Positions 1,054 to 8,225 of a stretch of 8,509 nt of DNA are shown one piece after another. The notes under the pieces were generated by a model. The model was not told the DNA's origin. It saw nothing but the letters and a program-made list of their open reading frames with translations, and did no database searches. The stretch comes from a virus (taxonomy: Duplodnaviria > Heunggongvirae > Uroviricota > Caudoviricetes), in IMG/VR virus record IMGVR_UViG_648276669_000009. One strand, written 5' to 3'. How positions within the stretch are numbered: the first letter of the stretch is position 1; each line of letters begins with the position of its first letter. Made by a program: the position numbers and the translations under genes.

Positions 1054-1148
1054 GACCAGCAAGCATCTTAATAAGACCTTTAATACTTGCTTTCAAAACT
1101 CCGTAAAACAAAAATCTCCCCCGAAAGTTTAGAAACATAGGGGGAAAT

Positions 1149-1469
1149 ATGACTCAATCCGCATTCATTCCACCAACTCCAGAACAGCGCCGCACCATAC
1201 TCGCCGAGTATGGTTTTGACTGCGAAGAACGCATCAGGGAAGAGAAGTGTAAAAAGATGACCACGCTTTCACGCTCCCGGCGCTGGGAACTGGAGAAGAT
1301 CGGTGCTTTTCCTCCCCGTCACTCTTTGGGGCGTTGCTCATGTACCTGGCTGTTAAGTGATGTTTTATGGTGGCTGCGTAATCCGCCAGTTATTGCCAAA
1401 GTGAATAACCCATACGAAAACGCCAAAAAGAAAAGGGAGAGGGAATCCGGTAGCGCCAGAGTTGAATAA
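1149..1469 (+). CDS. AlpA/Vis-family phage transcriptional regulator (excisionase-like winged HTH)
   Basis: 106-aa ORF with RBS GGGGGA about 7 nt upstream of the ATG. The segment TTLSRSRRWELEKIGAFPP...TWLLSDVLWWL matches the AlpA-type pattern of a helix followed by a conserved Trp-containing wing. Position upstream of an icd-like gene and primase is as in P4-like elements. An internal Met (MTTLS...) could be the true start. Confidence 0.65.
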   Translation: MTQSAFIPPTPEQRRTILAEYGFDCEERIREEKCKKMTTLSRSRRWELEKIGAFPPRHSLGRCSCTWLLSDVLWWLRNPPVIAKVNNPYENAKKKRERESGSARVE

Positions 1470-1579
1470 GCGTTGGTGGTTTATTGCGTCCATCACTGGG
1501 TGGCAAAACTTACTGATCTGAACGTATTGCTACATGTGGGGGAAGGAGGCCAAGTACTGACAGCAGAGCAAAAAAAGAA

Positions 1580-1599
1580 GCTCGCTAAAGCTAGCGAGC
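1580..1599 (+). other. Perfect 8-bp stem / 4-nt loop hairpin (GCTCGCTA-AAGC-TAGCGAGC) in the alpA-icd intergenic region; candidate RNA structural element
   Basis: Read directly from the sequence. No U-tract follows, so it is not a canonical intrinsic terminator. Confidence 0.4.
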
Positions 1600-2015
1600 C
1601 AACCAGTCAAGGATGTGCATTTAGTGCACCTGAAACCAACAATAAGAAACAATAGGCAGGAATGATTATGGCTTTTTTACTCTTTAAAATCAATCACTCA
1701 GCGAAAGTGAGCAAAAATAATTTGCAATATTGCTTGACTCGCTTTTTTGTCATGGCGTATCGTTTGCCCGCACCTCATAAAGCGGGTGCCGGGTTTAGCA
1801 GCCTGAACAATCAAGCGGGTAGCCGCTATATTTCCGTAATGCGGTTTTTTTGTGCCCGTAATTCCACCCTACCCCGTATTATGGCGGGGCGTAATGGGGG
1901 AGCCTTTGCGCTCGCTGGTTCCTTGATTGCCAGTCTGCTAACCCTGTTACGTCCCGCCACCATGTTTAGCAGCGTGCTGGCGAGACTCCGTAAACTTAAT
2001 CAAGGAGCCGCCAAA

Positions 2016-2189
2016 ATGGCTATATCAACACGCCCTGATTTTATCTGGCGCTTTATGCAGTGCCACGGTAAAAATATTCGCCTTCATACCGTTACCGCAG
2101 CCAGTGAGCGCGAAGCGCGCGCCATGCTTCCGGCATCCCGTCTGGTCTTTGTTGCCCGTATCCGTGTCCGGGAGGCGTGCCATGTTTAA
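2016..2189 (+). CDS. Icd-like / Kil-like small protein (host cell division inhibitor family of P1/P4-type immunity regions)
   Basis: 57-aa ORF MAISTRPDFIWRFMQCHGKNIRLHTVTAASEREARAMLPASRLVFVARIRVREACHV with SD AAGGAG 7 nt upstream of ATG 2016. The IWRF...SEREAR...LP...ARI pattern matches my recollection of Icd-like proteins. The 6-frame ORF 1662..2189 is probably coding only from this internal start. Confidence 0.55.
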   Translation: MAISTRPDFIWRFMQCHGKNIRLHTVTAASEREARAMLPASRLVFVARIRVREACHV

Positions 2190-2364
2190 GCTCCTTATCA
2201 CCCTGATTAACTACCAGAACGGCGACGTTCGCCAGATGATTCATTCCTGGGAATATCCGACTTATGACGATGCATGGCGTGATGCCTGTCGTATGGCATA
2301 TTCCCGCAATGACAAACAGGGGCGATTAACCCACAAATGCGCAGTAAAAATCATGGAGGGGTAA
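2182..2364 (+). CDS. Hypothetical small protein (60 aa), translationally coupled to the icd-like gene
   Basis: ATG at 2182 preceded by GGAGG (2172-2176); start overlaps the upstream stop (ATGTTTAA). Product MFKLLITLINYQNGDVRQMIHSWEYPTYDDAWRDACRMAYSRNDKQGRLTHKCAVKIMEG. Function unknown. Confidence 0.5.
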   Translation: MFKLLITLINYQNGDVRQMIHSWEYPTYDDAWRDACRMAYSRNDKQGRLTHKCAVKIMEG

Positions 2365-2366
2365 CG

Positions 2367-2555
2367 ATGTACGAGATTCATATTAAATTGCGTAATGTGG
2401 TAACAGGAGAGGAAGAAAACTTCCACACGATACGTAAATATAAATCAAAAGGAAAAGCGACAAGGGACGCTATCAGGTATACGGAAGAAATTGCGCCGAA
2501 ATATCAATTGCCAGAAGAAGAACTCACAGCATCAGTGGTAAAGGTGAAGAAATGA
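2367..2555 (+). CDS. Hypothetical small protein (62 aa)
   Basis: ATG at 2367 with SD GGAGGGG 5 nt upstream, 2 nt after the previous stop. Lys/Glu-rich product MYEIHIKLRNVVTGEEENFHTIRKYKSKGKATRDAIRYTEEIAPKYQLPEEELTASVVKVKK. Confidence 0.5.
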   Translation: MYEIHIKLRNVVTGEEENFHTIRKYKSKGKATRDAIRYTEEIAPKYQLPEEELTASVVKVKK

Positions 2556-3185: not shown

Positions 3186-5855
3186 ATGAAATCTGACATC
3201 AGAAAAGAGATTATTAACCGTCTTATCCGTGATTACAACTTCAAAGAAGAAAATAACTACCTCCGGTATGGTGTTTGTCCGCAATGTGGAAAGAAAGAGT
3301 TGTTTACCAGCCTTGAAAGGCCGTACATCGTACACTGCGGGCGTGAAAATAAATGCGGTGCAGACCTGCTGACCAAAGAACTTTACCCGGATGTGTTTTC
3401 ATCATGGTCAGATCGCTATATCAGCACGAAAGACGAGCCATATGCAGCGGCGGCAGCTTACCTTCAGGAGGCGCGCAATATTGCTGTGGAGCCGCTGAAG
3501 GGGGCATTTACTCAGGAGCGATACCAGGACAAGGAAAACGGCGAACAGGCCGCTACTGTGCGTTTTACGCTGGCTGACGGCGTGTGGTGGGAGCGCATCA
3601 TAGACCGACCGGAACGCTTCGCTCGCAAGGCGAATTTTTCCGGCAGCTACAAGGGGTTGTGGTGGGCTTATCCGGGAGCGGATTTAAGCAAGGCCAAAGA
3701 AATCTGGATTTGTGAGGGTATCTTTGATGCCATCAGCCTTAACCAGAATGGCATTGCGGCCGTTTCTGTCATGTCTGCCGTAAACTACCCGGATAAGGCG
3801 CTGGAAGAACTGGCGAAGCTGTGCGGTGATACCCCCCGTCCGGTTATCGTGTGGGCGCTGGATAACGGGCGTGCGGGTGAGCGTTACGCGAAAAAACATG
3901 CAGAACGCAGCGCCGAAGACGGCTGGAGAACGGCAGCGGCGTTACCGGGCGAAAACAACAATAAACGCGACTGGAATGATTTACACATCGCCGGAAAGCT
4001 GCGTGGCCATGATGTGAAAAGATACCGTTATTACGGTGATTTATTGTTGGCGAAATCTCCGAGAGATAAGGCACTAATAATGTTTTCCTTTCGTGAGCGA
4101 AAGGAATTTCATTTTCCCTTTGATAACCGTATTTTCTGGTTCAAGCTGGATATTGAGCGCCATATGAAGGCTGTTGAGCGTGTCATTAATGAGCGAAATG
4201 TTGACGAAGATGAAGCGCGCAAAATTGCACTCAAGGAATCCGGCGCTGTAAAAGAAATCGCAAACTGTAACCCAGTGCCGCTTTATTACATTCGAAACAA
4301 TGATACGGATGAAGCATGGTATTACTTCCGCATTACATTCCCGGATGGTGCTACGGTGAAAAACACCTTTACATCAGGGCAATTAACATCCGCATCTGAA
4401 TTTAAAAAACGTCTGTTGCACGTAGCAAAAGGCGGCATTTATACCGGAACGACTACGCAACTTGACGCATTAATAAAAAATGACCTTCCCGCAATAAAAG
4501 AGGTTATTGGTCAGGATTTTATCGGATACAACAAGGCCATTGGGGCATGGCTGTTTAATGATATTGCTGTTTACAAGGGTAAAACTTATGAAATCAATGA
4601 CGAAGATTATTTTGAAATTGATGGCATAAACGCAAAACCATTAAGCGAAAAACCCACATTACAGATTAACTACAAAAAACCGGATGAATTTACAACGTCA
4701 TGGGTGGAAGATCTCTGGCTGGCTTTTGGCGAAAAGGGAATTATTACCCTGGCTTTCTGGCTGGGTTCGCTGTTCAGTGAACAAATCCGGGATAAAGAAG
4801 AATCCTTCCCCTTCCTTGAAGTCACCGGGGAGCCCGGAACGGGTAAATCAACATTGATTGATTTTTGCTGGCGGCTGTGCGGTCGTGACAACTATGAAGG
4901 CGTAGATCCAACCAAAGGATCAGAGGCGGGCTGGAAGCGCACCTTTGGACAGGTCGCCGGATTACCTGTTGTTCTGATTGAAGCAGACCGGGGAGACAAT
5001 GCGCAAAAAAGAGGTGCGTTTGACTTCGATAACCTGAAAAGCCTCTATAACGGTGGCGGTATCGGTGTTCGTGGGGTTAAGGCCAACAATAACAACACCT
5101 ATGACCCGGATTTTAAGGGCGCTATCGTGATTGCGCAGAATGCGCGGGTAAATGCCTCGCCGGCAATTATTGAGCGCCTGATACGCATATACACCGATAA
5201 AAAACGCCATTCACCTGATACCCGACTGGCGGCGAGACGGCTGGAACTCTACCCCGTCGAGAAGGTATCGGGGTTTATTCACCGGGCGGTAAGTCAGGAA
5301 CGGGCGATTATGCAAACGTTCCTGGAAGTATCGCCCTCTGAAACGGAACGCCTTTGCGGATGCGAAAATATTCGCCATCCCCGTATTGCCAAAAATCACG
5401 CGCAACTTATCGCGCTGGTCAGGGCGCTGAAATGCGTTATCGATATCCCGGATGAATGGCTTGATGCCACATGTCTGGAACTGGAACAAATGGCAACGGC
5501 GCAGGTTAAAGCGGCGGCGGCTGACTTGCCAGAAGTGATGGAGTTCTGGGAGGCGTTCGACTTCCTGGACGGCATAACAAAATACGGTGTAAACCATTAC
5601 GGCAAGGGATGCCGCGAAGGGATTGCTATCAGTATTCCGCAACTGGCACAGGCTGCCGCCATTCACCGCGTGGAGATCCGAACCGATCGCGAAATGATTG
5701 AGTTGCTCGGAGCCGGACGTTCCCGACCTTTGACAGGCCGCAAAACCATTCGTAGTGAGGTGTCCAGACAGGCAAACGCCGGAAAAGGAGTAGCCGAAGC
5801 CAGAGAACCAGAAGTACTGAAATGCAGGATATTCAGTTACAAGGAGGGGGCTTAA
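3186..5855 (+). CDS. Replicative primase-helicase, P4 alpha-like (zinc ribbon + TOPRIM primase + D5/SF3-type P-loop NTPase)
   Basis: 889-aa ORF. N-terminal Cys4 zinc ribbon (CPQCGKK...HCGRENKCG), TOPRIM-like motifs (ICEGIFDAISL; LDNGRAGERY) and Walker A GEPGTGKST. ATG 3186 with SD GGTGGAG upstream is preferred over the GTG at 3162 used by the ORF track. The stop overlaps the integrase RBS. Confidence 0.85.
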   Translation: MKSDIRKEIINRLIRDYNFKEENNYLRYGVCPQCGKKELFTSLERPYIVHCGRENKCGADLLTKELYPDVFSSWSDRYISTKDEPYAAAAAYLQEARNIAVEPLKGAFTQERYQDKENGEQAATVRFTLADGVWWERIIDRPERFARKANFSGSYKGLWWAYPGADLSKAKEIWICEGIFDAISLNQNGIAAVSVMSAVNYPDKALEELAKLCGDTPRPVIVWALDNGRAGERYAKKHAERSAEDGWRTAAALPGENNNKRDWNDLHIAGKLRGHDVKRYRYYGDLLLAKSPRDKALIMFSFRERKEFHFPFDNRIFWFKLDIERHMKAVERVINERNVDEDEARKIALKESGAVKEIANCNPVPLYYIRNNDTDEAWYYFRITFPDGATVKNTFTSGQLTSASEFKKRLLHVAKGGIYTGTTTQLDALIKNDLPAIKEVIGQDFIGYNKAIGAWLFNDIAVYKGKTYEINDEDYFEIDGINAKPLSEKPTLQINYKKPDEFTTSWVEDLWLAFGEKGIITLAFWLGSLFSEQIRDKEESFPFLEVTGEPGTGKSTLIDFCWRLCGRDNYEGVDPTKGSEAGWKRTFGQVAGLPVVLIEADRGDNAQKRGAFDFDNLKSLYNGGGIGVRGVKANNNNTYDPDFKGAIVIAQNARVNASPAIIERLIRIYTDKKRHSPDTRLAARRLELYPVEKVSGFIHRAVSQERAIMQTFLEVSPSETERLCGCENIRHPRIAKNHAQLIALVRALKCVIDIPDEWLDATCLELEQMATAQVKAAAADLPEVMEFWEAFDFLDGITKYGVNHYGKGCREGIAISIPQLAQAAAIHRVEIRTDREMIELLGAGRSRPLTGRKTIRSEVSRQANAGKGVAEAREPEVLKCRIFSYKEGA

Positions 5856-5857
5856 AC

Positions 5858-6861
5858 ATGTCGATCAGAAAACTGGATGATGGGCGATGGTTGCTCGATA
5901 TCAGGCCATGCGGACGTAAAGGAAAGCGCGTCAGAAGAATATTTGACAGAAAATCGATAGCTGTAGCAACTGAACGGTACATCATAGCGAACGCCGAAAA
6001 ACGCGAGTTTATACAGGGCTACCGCGACCGGAGAACCCTCAGCGATTTACTGGAGTTGTGGTGGGTTTATCACGGTCAGCACAGGCGAAAGGCAGGCACA
6101 GATAAACAGCAGCTTGGCAAAATCATTAATGAGCTTGGAGCTGACATGTTTGCGGTAGAGCTCGACAAATTAAAAATCATTGCATGGCGATCGCAGAAAA
6201 TTGCGGAAGGGCTAAAGCCGTCCTCAGCAAACAGATATATGAACAGATTATCTGGGATGTTTACAGCCCTGAAAAAGATCGGTTTGTGGGATGCAGAACA
6301 TCCTGTTCACGGTATTCCTGTTCTTTACGTAAGGCAGCGGGAGATGGCCTTTTTATCAAAAAACGAGGTCACATTGTTGCTTGACAGACTGAATGGAGAT
6401 CAACGAAGGGTTGCGCTCTTATGTCTTTGCACCGGAGCTCGCTGGAGTGAAGCCAGCAGATTACACGGAGAGCAAATAGTTCATAACAGAATCACGTTTC
6501 TGGAAACCAAAAACGGTAGAAAAAGAACGGTGCCTGTGTCGCAGGAAATATGTGCTGCCGTAAAAACAAAAGAAACCGGGCGACTGTTTGATGTGAAGTA
6601 CAGAGAGTTTTGCCGGGCATTAAAAAAATAAAACCCGATTTACCGAGGGGGCAGGCTGCGCATGTATTGCGGCATACATTCGCCAGTCACTTTGTGATGA
6701 ACGGTGGCAACATTCTTGCGCTACAAAAAATCCTTGGGCATGCGACAATTCAGCAGACTATGGCATACGCACATTTTGCACCGGATTATCTGGCAGATGC
6801 CATGAGATTTAACCCGGTAGCCAACATAGTGATCACCGAAGAAAAAGAGCCAGCAGAGTAA
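5858..6861 (+). pseudogene. int: Tyrosine recombinase / integrase, phage P2 Int-like, interrupted by a -1 frameshift in an A7 run (reading frame switches at about 6622-6631)
   Basis: ATG 5858 with SD AAGGAGGGGG upstream. N-terminus MSIRKLDDGRWLLDIRPCGRKGKRVRRIF is colinear with P2 Int as I recall it. Box I TGARWSEASRL lies in the first frame; the HxxR motif (HVLRHTFASHF) and catalytic Tyr region (TMAYAHFAPDYL) lie in the -1 frame (6610..6861). The first frame ends at TAA 6629-6631. Joining the frames at the A-run gives ...RALKKIKPDLP..., with the same spacing as the P2 Int junction. Confidence 0.8.
6622..6631 (+). other. A_AAA_AAA slippery heptamer immediately followed by an in-frame TAA; site of the integrase frame change
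   Basis: Codons TTA AAA AAA TAA in the zero frame. A -1 shift reads ATA AAA CCC (I K P) and continues into the catalytic domain. Could be a 1-nt deletion from an ancestral A8, a homopolymer sequencing error, or programmed slippage. Confidence 0.6.
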
Positions 6862-6918: not shown

Positions 6919-7108
6919 TGGCCAGAACCAACGGTAACAGCAATGCAATGGTGGCCATATTGCAGTGGTGCCGCCATCAATTTTTTGCTCCCCTGATTAT
7001 CAGAAAGAGTCAAATAGTGGTGAGATACATTTTAATTACAGAGAGTTAATGAAAGTGAGATAGAGTGAGTGAGTTTAATTAACATTTTAAAGGGTCGCGC
7101 TAAAGTTT

Positions 7109-7426
7109 GGGGGGGGATGCGCAAAGCGGTTACAACGGTTACAAATTTAAAATCACTTATTTTTGTATTATGTATCAATATATTATAACTGGTCTGATGA
7201 GTTACAAAAGCGGTTACAACGCGGTTACATGTAACCGTTTTGTTAGGTTACAGGCGGTTACAGGTTAAGTTTTTAATTGATTGATAATAAAGTGCTTTTT
7301 GAAACCTGTAACCGTTGTAACCGCAGTGTAACCGCAAAGCGGTTACAAACAATATCCATTAAAATCATGTTGTTAAGTGGTGTTTTTGACTGTTGTAACC
7401 GTTGTAACCGCTTTGCGCACCCCCCA
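7109..7426. repeat. Iteron cluster: at least 13 copies of GGTTACA / TGTAACC in dyad-symmetric arrangement, bounded by a 34-bp inverted repeat and containing AT-rich spacers; putative replication origin and/or recombination arm-site region
   Basis: Perfect heptamers at 7128, 7137, 7212, 7223, 7246, 7256, 7341 (top strand) and 7230, 7307, 7316, 7327, 7394, 7403 (complement), plus degenerate copies. Left arm 7111-7144 and right arm 7393-7425 are reverse complements apart from one extra A at 7117. There is a 16-bp perfect palindrome CGGTTACATGTAACCG at 7222-7237. AT-rich tracts lie at 7145-7200 and 7263-7300. Confidence 0.7.
7173..7185 (+). promoter_or_regulatory. IHF-like site (TATCAATATATTA fits WATCAANNNNTTR) inside the AT-rich spacer of the iteron region
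   Basis: Consensus match read from the sequence. AT-rich DNA produces such matches easily, so this is weak on its own. Confidence 0.3.
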
Positions 7427-8042: not shown

Positions 8043-8225
8043 ATGTCTTTCCCTTGCCCGGCCTGTGGCGCTTCAGCCCGCACCCGTGGTCGTTCGTTGG
8101 AAGAACACGAACAAAACATCTACAAAACGTATTACCAGTGCAATAATATTGAGTGCGGGGCCTGTTTTTGTACGCTTGAGTCGTTTGTACGCATCACTAA
8201 GCGCAGGAAGTCGAAAACTTCATAG
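8043..8225 (+). CDS. ogr: Ogr/Delta-family zinc-finger late-gene transcriptional activator
   Basis: 60-aa ORF with SD AGGAG 7 nt upstream of the ATG. Cys spacing C-X2-C-X24-C-X4-C (CPAC...QCNNIEC), and the local sequence CPACGASARTRGR...YYQCNNIECGACF parallels P2 Ogr (CPLCQHAAHARTSRY...YHQCQNVNCSATF, from memory). Confidence 0.85.
   Translation: MSFPCPACGASARTRGRSLEEHEQNIYKTYYQCNNIECGACFCTLESFVRITKRRKSKTS

Follow-up and report, generated by a model that had tools for sequence, protein, structure and literature searches.

What occupies the interval between the alpA-like and the icd-like gene of this 8,509-nt stretch of viral DNA (referred to as the window, at its full length), and is it read as RNA, as protein, or as both? 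An earlier note had proposed an antisense-RNA immunity region resembling P1 c4 and P4 CI for positions 1470–2015. This proposal holds up against two Rfam families, homology to P7 and the layout of P4 (Table 1), and positions 1734–2015 very probably control the immunity of a P4-like satellite prophage, with a build like that of P1/P7 immI c4 and of P4 seqA-cI-seqC. As read from sequence, homology and covariation, the order of elements is promoter, leader (a1/b1), C4 (b′/a′), a2/b2 and icd/kil. The locus is an ordinary addition to the known P1 c4/P4 CI antisense-RNA family, located on an E. coli phage-satellite island, and leaves the known picture of P1/P4 immunity unchanged.

Of the core genes of P4-like satellites, the element carries alpA, a primase of the toprim type, a frameshifted integrase gene and Ogr_Delta. 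Neither sid nor psu was found in the window, nor is either listed in a 19.3-kb stretch of a near-identical element from E. coli strain 2-1 (NZ_CP097198); in their place, that copy carries a major capsid gene of the P2 family. A frameshift in the second integrase gene, seen in the window, raises the possibility of a defective element. The two flanking genes had been named correctly. The alpA-like gene corresponds in position to P4 vis (ORF88), which lies directly upstream of the RNA region in P4; no Ogr/Delta-type late promoter (TGT-N12-ACA) was found upstream of it with a simple pattern that a divergent site could escape. The icd-like gene starts at the ATG at 2016 and matches a profile that gives 76.1 bits for P4 Kil and 52.7 for P7 Icd. 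At its stop, it overlaps by 8 nt with the gene that follows (ATG 2182), and the toprim primase gene lies further downstream (3186–5855). Variation at the three codon positions of the icd/kil-like gene (0.24/0.21/0.36) shows an excess at the third and hence indicates purifying selection on the protein; by analogy, this gene would be the first to be translated on transcripts from the RNA promoter, and repression would act on it. A scan of genome contigs with the 57-aa icd/kil-like protein confirmed no locus; the comparison loci used below were sampled from IMG/VR and 5,426 E. coli genomes.

Table 1. Features assigned between the alpA-like and the icd/kil-like gene, with both flanking genes, in order of position.
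Feature	Position	Strand	Evidence and remarks
alpA/vis-like helix-turn-helix gene	1149–1469	+	Pfam Phage_AlpA, 30.5 bits (cutoff 21)
Intrinsic-terminator-like hairpin	1569–1600	−	9-bp stem 1579–1600, then TCTTTTTTT (terminator scan)
eta-like open frame, 175 codons	1662–2189	+	ATG 1662 or 1668; AGGCAGGA (1654–1661) upstream
Sigma-70-type promoter (predicted)	1734–1763	+	−35 TTGACT, 18-nt spacer, −10 TATCGT; predicted start near 1770
IsrK/SeqA-type leader RNA	1770–1851	+	Rfam RF01394, 52.1 bits (gathering score 50)
a1 target GGGTTTAGCAG	1791–1801	+	complementary to a′; covaries with a′
b1 target CAATCAAG	1808–1815	+	perfect 8-nt complement of the b′ loop
C4/CI-type antisense RNA	1877–1964	+	Rfam RF01695, 74.7 bits (gathering score 45), E = 1.3e-13
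b′ recognition loop UUCCUUGAUUG	1919–1929	+	loop of C4 hairpin 2; hypervariable between elements
a′ recognition sequence CUGCUAACCC	1935–1944	+	in the family fold, 1935–1941 form the unpaired linker
a2 target GTTTAGCAG	1964–1972	+	directly 3′ of C4
b2 target TAATCAAGGAGCC	1997–2009	+	contains the Shine-Dalgarno sequence AAGGAG (2002–2007) of the icd/kil-like gene
icd/kil-like gene, 57 codons	2016–2189	+	NCBIfam NF033153 (Icd-like), 56 bits over 2016–2186 (cutoff 25)

The covariance-model search that had been suggested as a check, with an accession that proved correct, yields a full-length match to the C4 family (model positions 1–87 of 87). Its score is close to those of P4 CI (74.9 bits) and P7 c4 (69.6 bits) with the same model. 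The predicted RNA consists of a long closing stem around two hairpins, a single-stranded linker and a 3′ CCA tail (1960–1962), the latter preceded by a tRNA-like 7-bp end stem that is visible in the sequence. The minimum-energy fold coincides with the family fold (−45.8 kcal/mol, z = −5.7), and in 14 relatives 94.4 % of the cells at structural pairs are paired, as compared to 37–46 % when the partners are slid. The arms of a CCCCG/CGGGG stem-loop described before are present at 1872–1876 and 1885–1889, and the 3′ arm falls within the closing stem of C4, on its 5′ side.

Upstream of C4, the promoter-like site is invariant in seven of eight close relatives, aligns with TTGACC/TATAGT of P7 and ends 7 nt 5′ of the RF01394 match. 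It shares this geometry with P4 PLE (TTGCCT-18-TATAGT, ending 7 nt ahead of the P4 isrK match) and is the counterpart of both PLE and the P1/P7 c4 promoter. The leader begins with two hairpins, the second of which presents a1 in its loop, and continues with a single-stranded b1 and a putative intrinsic terminator whose stem is weak, followed by a U7 tract at 1845–1851 (a T7 run had been placed one position further downstream, at 1846–1852). The stems are kept in relatives, and the terminator stem and U7 are present and conserved. The RF01394 score clears its threshold narrowly (P4 reaches 60.8 bits). The c4-a1b1 model RF03163 overlaps the isrK match at 1757–1809 and stays below its gathering score (29.5 bits vs 46.7; the homologous P7 segment reaches 55.5 and P4 44.1), so that the segment is classed as isrK and called a1/b1-bearing only.

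The recognition sequences had in part been seen before. The repeat GTTTAGCAGC was noted at 1793–1802 and 1964–1973; both copies are exact and correspond to the a1 and a2 targets, and with one mismatch allowed the window contains three matches against 0.56 expected, a number reached in 2 of 200 shuffles. The element at 1935–1944, CTGCTAACCC, had been rightly singled out, as it is the a′ recognition sequence of C4. The 10-bp duplex with one bulge ascribed to it exists with GGGTTTAGCAG at 1791–1801 (10 pairs, one bulged T), but the downstream copy gives 8 pairs only (7 contiguous plus G1964–C1942). What had escaped attention is the second set, in which the b′ loop pairs with b1 and, over the Shine-Dalgarno sequence, with b2. 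In the minimum-energy fold of the read-through RNA, it is this latter pairing of b′ with the Shine-Dalgarno region of icd/kil that forms.

Across relatives, both sets covary. In b1:b′, six of eight pairs are changed on both sides, in b′:b2 eight of eleven, and in a′:a2 all cells (100 %) are paired, with three covarying pairs. Taken together, a1:a′ and b1:b′ are paired in 97.6 % of cells (27–45 % when slid), with 52 cells changed on both sides as compared to 16 in shuffles, a value reached by none of 500; for b′:b2 and a′:a2 the figures are 95.9 % and 53 double changes against 17 (0 of 500), and over both pairing sets the slid-partner control leaves 27–48 % of cells paired. Among 27 unique regions, there are 16 distinct b′ loops and three a′ cores. 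Both b1 and b2 match their own b′ in every one of the 27; a1 and a2 likewise fit a′ everywhere except in L055, whose a1 does not. The covariation of b′:b2 is as strong as that of b1:b′, which argues that the pairing with the Shine-Dalgarno sequence is itself under selection. A further candidate, CAGTCAAGGA at 1604–1613, was considered as a third b-type target or as a b′-like motif on a minus-strand RNA and was rejected, because it is unchanged in L008 and L010 despite their differing b′ loops.

These data bear on the reading implied by the current annotation, according to which the region is the N-terminal part of an Icd-like protein of 173–175 aa (PGAP) and its RNA-like features are incidental. 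RefSeq annotates 1668–2189 as one CDS, the frame has no stop and stays open in relatives, and a purine-rich stretch lies 5′ of the ATG starts. The Icd-like domain is, however, confined to residues 127–169 of the long-ORF protein, while the N-terminal 118 codons match no family and lack a third-position excess of variation. Moreover, two Rfam models score above threshold, a promoter lies inside the ORF, P7 keeps the same RNAs despite six in-frame stops, and the covarying partners are 100–190 nt apart, a pattern that is impossible from protein constraint. A protein-only explanation is accordingly extremely improbable.

Among the closest known systems, the immI loci of P1 and P7 (c4-icd-ant1/2) are directly homologous in DNA, with 79–81 % identity over 186 nt (window positions 1789–1974, P7-annotated c4). 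The c4-icd region of P7 aligns base for base from the promoter through icd. The a1, a′ and a2 sequences are identical, terminator and C4 fold are the same, and in both the icd Shine-Dalgarno sequence lies under b2 with an Icd-family protein encoded downstream. The b elements differ in a compensating manner: GAUUGUG/CACAAUC/GAUUGUGAGG in P7 correspond to CAAUCAAG/CUUGAUUG/AAUCAAGGAG in the window (b1/b′/b2). Unlike P1/P7, the window has no C1 operator 5′ of its promoter and a gene other than ant behind icd, and its icd frame is open far upstream, whereas P7 has six stops there.

With P4, in contrast, sequences can be aligned in the RNA cores only, and what is shared is the architecture. A comparison with the P4 seqA/seqB/seqC arrangement had been proposed, and the window indeed follows the order of the P4 seqA-cI-seqC-kil region as well as the spacing logic of PLE, seqA, cI/CI RNA (seqB), seqC and kil within eta. 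Both possess alpA/vis, a promoter ending 7 nt before an isrK-type leader, a1 and b1 in that leader, a terminator, a C4-family RNA whose loop is b′ and whose linker is a′, then a2, b2 across the Shine-Dalgarno sequence, and an Icd/Kil gene that ends a longer ORF of the same frame, begun upstream of the promoter; small ORFs and then the toprim primase follow downstream, and an Ogr/Delta gene is found in the element. The long open frame of P4 comprises 214 codons (8812–8168), and lengths of 65 and 197 codons for the two nested genes agree with the P4 sequence. The long ORFs share only the Kil/Icd domain, and this at profile level; in BLASTP, their translations gave no match, nor did the eta-like ORF of the window match the 138-aa "cI gene product" ORF of the P4 record. 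P4 also differs in its recognition sequences (b′ CCUGUGAA, a′ UUCUCAC), in the gap between leader terminator and C4 (107 nt vs 25 nt in the window), in the eta start, which overlaps the alpA stop in P4 but follows it by 193 nt in the window, and in lacking the minus-strand terminator that the window has in the alpA–eta gap.

A third related system is isrK-orf45 (STnc1160)-anrP of the Salmonella prophage Gifsy-1, which has in common with the window a match to the Rfam family RF01394. An IsrK-type sRNA with a leaky terminator is known there and predicted for the window. The Gifsy-1 read-through RNA contains a processed ~80-nt RNA complementary to IsrK, and the pairings control translation of the first downstream reading frame (PMC4825925). 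The downstream gene there is an antirepressor rather than icd/kil, and activation in trans by IsrK was shown experimentally in that system. Transferred to the satellite, this would mean that the short IsrK-type RNA is a trans-activator that opens a closed read-through mRNA and that C4 is a processing by-product instead of a repressor. In addition to the isrK match, the predicted read-through RNA folds either a1/b1 onto a′/b′ (centroid) or b′ onto b2 (minimum energy), two folds reminiscent of the alternatives termed structures A and B in PMC4825925, and an in-frame AUG at 1881 is the counterpart of the translated orf45 start. On the other hand, the homologous RNA is a genetically defined immunity repressor in P1, P7 and P4 (PMC8198154, PMC10111431), and the covariation of b′:b2 points to selection on the Shine-Dalgarno pairing. 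We regard a mainly Gifsy-1-like mode of action as quite improbable; a trans-activator role of IsrK and a repressor role of C4 are in any case not mutually exclusive.

Embedded in the antisense-RNA immunity region is an open frame that complicates its description as noncoding. The earlier note had found no convincing CDS, which is true for ORF 1473–1655 but not for 1662–2189, a conserved frame that begins 5′ of the RNA promoter, spans both RNA genes and ends in frame as the icd/kil-like gene. Likewise, canonical starts and ribosome binding sites are lacking only for the former (TTG start), given that the latter has ATG 1662/1668 behind AGGCAGGA. This frame is free of stops, as compared to 7 and 10 in the other two. 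Frame comparison covered first 15 satellite loci including P4, in all of which the icd frame upstream of the gene has no stop (1–11 in the other frames), and then 27 further unique regions, many of the compared loci being close relatives of one another: 24 of the 27 are without a stop and 26 are open for at least 110 codons, while three have at least one in-frame stop within 360 nt 5′ of the ATG and are open for 58 (L054), 110 and 118 codons. Indels among relatives sum to multiples of three and thus compensate each other.

It is conceivable that the C4/IsrK locus is real but that full-length translation of 1662–2189 never occurs; the open frame would then follow from the conservation of G+C-rich RNA sequence, and expression would be confined to the 57-codon icd/kil. 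The eta-specific part indeed lacks the third-position excess of variation seen in icd proper, which indicates that its protein product is not under selection, and its openness could partly be inherited from the conserved RNA sequence. The alpA stop lies at 1467–1469, the next in-frame ATG at 1662 and an in-frame TAG at 1653–1655; at this distance from the alpA stop, the eta-like ATG lacks the translational coupling known from P4, and the pattern search for an upstream late promoter was negative. The stops in three of the 27 further regions and the close relationship of many of the loci compared also fit this alternative. However, the A+T-rich, non-RNA part (1662–1769) is open as well and has stops in the other frames, the compensating indels keep the frame open in independent lineages, and all four spacings between tandem units are multiples of three. 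Furthermore, P7, which is without the upstream promoter arrangement, has lost the open frame, and translation of eta was shown experimentally for the same design in P4 (Forti 1999 via PMC10111431). On balance, this alternative appears rather unlikely. From frame conservation and the P4 precedent, we infer that transcripts arriving from upstream may be translatable across the RNA region into icd/kil. Such translation had been listed as grounds for abandoning the RNA interpretation, which is not valid, since in P4 the homologous region serves as an RNA gene and, at the same time, is translated within the nested eta/kil frame (Forti et al. 1999, as summarised in PMC10111431).

The alpA–eta gap itself holds a perfect 8-bp hairpin (1580–1587/1592–1599) that had been counted among the features of the immunity switch. 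The stem exists, within the 9-bp stem listed in Table 1, but it lies upstream of the promoter with its T-run on the minus strand, and a role as part of an immunity RNA was rejected. Weak Rfam matches to Trp_leader and suhB at this site (E about 0.7) are terminator look-alikes. The hairpin may end a short divergent transcript. Other module types carry a minus-strand hairpin with T-run of different sequence 150–190 nt upstream of the isrK start, namely the L009/L006/L012 type (by alignment) and L013 (by scan). ORF 1473–1655 was discarded as a gene; it matches no family, and even between relatives with over 90 % identity its frame is broken by differences in A-run length.

For RNA processing, stability, repression and termination at the satellite locus, a scheme can be derived by analogy with the immI mechanism of P1 (PMC8198154), with eta/kil/CI of P4 (PMC10111431, citing Forti 1999) and with IsrK (PMC4825925). 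As judged from work on P1 and P4, most transcripts would end at the leader terminator, while those reading through would be processed at the tRNA-like, CCA-ended stem by RNase P, giving a stable C4 RNA of ~80 nt. C4 would pair with a2/b2 of other transcripts (in trans) as well as with those of its own read-through transcript (in cis) and thereby block ribosome binding to icd/kil; the untranslated RNA would then be terminated prematurely and the early genes, including the toprim primase, would remain silent. Silencing would hold in the prophage as well as in superinfecting elements with the same a′/b′ specificity. The upstream a1/b1 copy would serve as a second pairing site; in P4, the upstream target copy is required for efficient termination. 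Transcripts started upstream and running through alpA, if translated through 1662–2189, would melt these pairings and be insensitive to immunity.

A broader, three-part reading would join an override of RNA immunity by the open frame with a multi-specific array and a minus-strand regulator RNA, and we put it forward tentatively, as its parts are unlikely to hold jointly. First, this group of satellites would keep its immunity RNAs in a frame selected for openness only, with translation as a general override. Second, a′ and b′ would reassort into many specificities, and some relatives, in which two or three isrK/C4 units of different specificity are stacked in a single frame, would thereby possess a multi-specific immunity array. 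Third, a divergent minus-strand RNA (~1658 to 1570), running from a conserved promoter-like site to the terminator at 1579–1600, may work in the interval that separates alpA from the eta-like start and would represent an undescribed extra regulator.

For the annotation of such elements, the 173-aa "Icd-like protein" of RefSeq really comprises a 57-codon icd/kil gene, the genes of two regulatory RNAs and a leader frame of the eta type, and the comparative data suggest that the eta/kil translation override of P4 is general among these satellites. The three-way covariation offers a clean natural example of antisense recognition, with 16 b′ types that each have their own two targets. The immunity specificity of this satellite is given by b′ UUCCUUGAUUG together with a′ CUGCUAA, and specificity of this b′/a′ kind should determine which related satellites coexist in E. 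coli and which exclude each other.

The antisense-RNA immunity region of the P1 c4/P4 CI type that an earlier note had proposed between alpA and the icd-like gene stands. The Rfam search it recommended gave a full-length match to the C4 family (RF01695; 74.7 bits, gathering score 45), one of only two plus-strand matches at curated thresholds, the other being isrK (RF01394; 52.1 bits against 50). At permissive settings, c4-a1b1 (RF03163) was additionally detected at 1757-1809, with 29.5 bits under its threshold of 46.7. Folded alone, the C4 segment adopts the family structure at -45.8 kcal/mol, 5.7 standard deviations below shuffles. Moreover, NCBIfam NF033153 (cutoff 25) matches the window protein encoded at 2016-2186 with 56 bits, as compared to 76.1 for P4 Kil and 52.7 for P7 Icd. 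The window therefore holds the elements in the order of the table, which is the layout of P4.

Elements of the immunity region in the window (a' and b', recognition sequences in C4 RNA; a1/b1 and a2/b2, upstream and downstream targets; SD, Shine-Dalgarno sequence)
Element	Position	Content or match
alpA/vis	1149-1469	
Promoter	1734-1763	TTGACT/TATCGT
IsrK/SeqA-type leader	1770-1851	a1 and b1; RF01394
C4/CI RNA	1877-1964	b' and a'; RF01695
a2	1964-1972	
b2	1997-2009	SD
icd/kil	2016-2189	NF033153

The repeats described previously are in place, namely the direct repeat GTTTAGCAGC (exact at 1793-1802 and 1964-1973), its near-complement CTGCTAACCC at 1935-1944, the 8-bp hairpin at 1580-1599 and the CCCCG/CGGGG arms at 1872-1876 and 1885-1889; the T7 run lies one base further left, at 1845-1851. 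A repeat scan furthermore revealed a second, overlooked complementary set, which matches GGTTCCTTGATT (1917-1928) with AATCAAGGAGCC (1998-2009) and CTTGATTG (1922-1929) with CAATCAAG (1808-1815). Separately, a perfect 10-bp palindrome, GCAATATTGC, occupies 1724-1733, directly next to the -35 hexamer of the RNA promoter; seven of eight close relatives keep this palindrome, a possible operator for some regulator.

Distant BLAST against phage genomes found 79-81 % identity to window 1789-1974 in P1, P7 and related plasmid prophages, with the P7 part falling on the annotated c4 gene. Pairwise alignment with P7 spans the promoter hexamers (TTGACC/TATAGT in P7), a1, the leader terminator, C4 and a2 and reaches into icd. 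The two share identical a1, a' and a2 sequences; their b1, b' and b2 are all different, with changes that compensate one another (GATTGTG/CACAATC/GATTGTGAGG in P7, CAATCAAG/CTTGATTG/AATCAAGGAG in the window), and the window is without the C1 operator that P7 has 5' of the promoter. In the left operon of P4, the isrK model matches 8692-8615 (60.8 bits) and the C4 model 8507-8420 (74.9 bits), the latter being the CI RNA. The P4 promoter, TTGCCT-18-TATAGT, ends 7 nt before the isrK match, a geometry identical to that of the window. The leader holds a1 (GTGAGAA) and b1 (TTCACAGG), the C4 match b' (CCTGTGAA) and a' (TTCTCAC), followed by a2 (GTGAGAA), and b2 (TTCACAGGAGG) is the Shine-Dalgarno sequence of kil.

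A protein-guided IMG/VR scan yielded 17 related loci, 15 of which were scannable (L005, which duplicates the window, was omitted, and L007 is truncated within C4); in all 15, Rfam placed a C4 upstream of the icd-like gene. Across the aligned C4s, the stems are kept, the hairpin 2 loop (b') is strongly variable and the linker (a') less so. At each locus, b' finds its best complement both at the b1 position and at the SD, and a' finds its own at the a2 position; in loci of the window's C4 type, the best complement of a' also lies at a1, a site that is tied or outscored by an unrelated 7-9-nt match in several loci. On a 14-sequence whole-region alignment, a1:a' and b1:b' are paired in 97.6 % of cells (27-45 % with the partner slid), with 52 cells changed on both sides versus 16 in shuffles; the values for b':b2 and a':a2 are 95.9 % (29-48 %) and 53 versus 17, and in either case none of 500 shuffles reached the observed count. 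The structural stems (94.4 % of cells kept) have a covariation score of 0.16 as compared to 0.56-0.57 for the target pairings and thus vary much less, so it is the recognition sequences that evolve fast. Searching by DNA pattern for the conserved C4 5' stem added 39 stretches, including 27 unique regions, with 16 different b' loops and three a' cores; all 27 have b1 and b2 that match b', and in 26 both a1 and a2 match a'. As identical b' occur with different a', the two reassort. Taken together, these data argue strongly for pairings that are functional and that define immunity specificities. In some related satellites, icd is preceded by two or three isrK/C4 units in tandem (L018, 845-1928, on a contig shared with L035; L013 and L014, 1783-2501; L016, 1697-2438). 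Every unit has an a'/b' specificity of its own, with targets to match, and a single open frame contains them all; such an arrangement may constitute a multi-specific immunity array.

The earlier note saw no convincing CDS here. This is correct for ORF 1473-1655, which has no family match and whose frame is broken by A-run length variation among 90-98 % identical relatives, but not for 1662-2189, which is conspicuously open and encloses the promoter and both RNA genes. In RefSeq, an E. coli copy with 99.9 % identity has 1668-2189 annotated as an "Icd-like protein" of 173 aa, with the Icd-like domain confined to residues 127-169. Between 1656 and 2015, the icd frame of the window contains no stop, versus 7 and 10 in the other two. 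Likewise, the 360 nt upstream of the icd ATG are free of in-frame stops in 15 of 15 satellite loci including P4 (1-11 in the other frames), unlike in P7, where the corresponding stretch has six. Of the 27 further unique regions, 24 are likewise free of in-frame stops over these 360 nt; two of the remaining three are open for 110 and 118 codons, and L054 for 58 only. Measured against the window, indels add up to multiples of three in three lineages (L008, -1/+1; L013, +3/-3/-1/+1; L015, +3/-3), and the tandem unit spacings (342, 357, 477 and 351 nt) are all multiples of three. Variation at codon positions 1/2/3 is 0.24/0.21/0.36 in icd proper, a third-position excess, versus 0.46/0.42/0.40, without such excess, in the eta-specific part; hence, it is the openness of the frame that is conserved there and not the protein sequence.

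By analogy, the nested open frame of the window is the design described for P4 eta/kil. P4 kil and eta comprise 65 and 197 codons, as the P4 sequence confirms: its 214-codon open frame gives 197 codons from Met18 and a 65-codon kil. kil forms the C-terminal part of eta, which begins upstream of the constitutive promoter; only transcripts from the upstream late promoter support eta translation, and this translation keeps immunity-dependent termination from occurring (PMC10111431, summarising Forti et al. 1999). The earlier view that translation of 1662-2189 would speak against an RNA region consequently fails, as P4 eta/kil combines both. In contrast to P4 eta, which is coupled to an alpA-type gene, the eta-like ATG lies 193 nt from the alpA stop, and a window motif search found no Ogr/Delta-type promoter motif upstream of alpA. 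We also observed that alpA, ORF 1473-1655 and ORF 1662-2189 share one frame with single stops between them (TAA 1467-1469, TAG 1653-1655), which may be chance or the remnant of a P4-like layout with the long frame abutting alpA. At the other end, the icd/kil-like stop overlaps the ATG (2182) of the next ORF by 8 nt (2182-2189), identical to the overlap of the P4 kil/eta frame with epsilon (8168-8175), which suggests conserved translational coupling.

On the minus strand, the hairpin at 1580-1599 extends to a 9-bp stem (1579-1600) followed by TCTTTTTTT and resembles an intrinsic terminator; a hairpin and T-run of different sequence are found at a comparable position in two other module types. 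Upstream of the hairpin on this strand is a promoter-like site, TTGATT (1693-1688)-17 nt-CATAAT (1670-1665), with hexamers invariant in eight relatives and a differing spacer. The interval between alpA and the eta-like start could therefore give rise to a divergent RNA of about 85 nt (within 1569-1693); no Rfam family matches this candidate, permissive search included.

Among 5,426 complete E. coli genomes, 108 contain DNA resembling window 1100-2400, invariably on the chromosome, and in 40 of the 108 a single match spans at least 80 % of this stretch. In E. coli strain 2-1 (NZ_CP097198; L002), the element adjoins gcd and comprises an integrase, alpA, the RNA region, small ORFs, a toprim primase, a second integrase, Ogr/Delta and, downstream of the latter (L002 16583-19200, outside the window), a P2-family major capsid gene and a MazEF toxin-antitoxin pair; neither sid nor psu is listed in the stretch read of this near-identical element. 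This gene set is unusual for a P4-like satellite. In the window, the second tyrosine-integrase gene (5858-6861) is split into ORFs 5822-6631 and 6610-6861 at an A-run (~6621-6632), which indicates a 1-bp frameshift; it is annotated as intact (333 aa) in strain 2-1. In the gene-free stretch 7100-7420, GGTTACA/TGTAACC(G) repeats are densely clustered in both orientations; they probably serve the upstream toprim primase as iterons of a replication origin.

What the analysis shows are the elements themselves, their homology and selection acting on the pairings; the steps of the mechanism we infer from work on P1, P4 and Gifsy-1 (PMC8198154, PMC10111431, PMC4825925). The promoter would be constitutive, with the leader terminator ending most transcripts, and read-through RNA would be processed to stable C4 RNA. 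RNase P processing of C4-type RNA was reportedly described by Hartmann et al. in 1995, and the 7-bp end stem of C4 followed by CCA (1960-1962) fits such processing. The icd/kil SD would be masked because a' and b' of C4 pair with a2 and b2, and the untranslated RNA would be terminated, keeping the early genes downstream, up to the toprim primase gene, off. The a1/b1 copy would provide a second C4 site; when carried on the short IsrK-type RNA, this site could titrate C4 or else open up read-through transcripts, as demonstrated for Gifsy-1 (PMC4825925). For the 261-nt read-through RNA, either state is predicted: the minimum-energy fold contains b':b2, and the centroid pairs a1/b1 with a'/b'. The locus is a straightforward addition to the C4/CI immunity family and has a b' specificity of its own.
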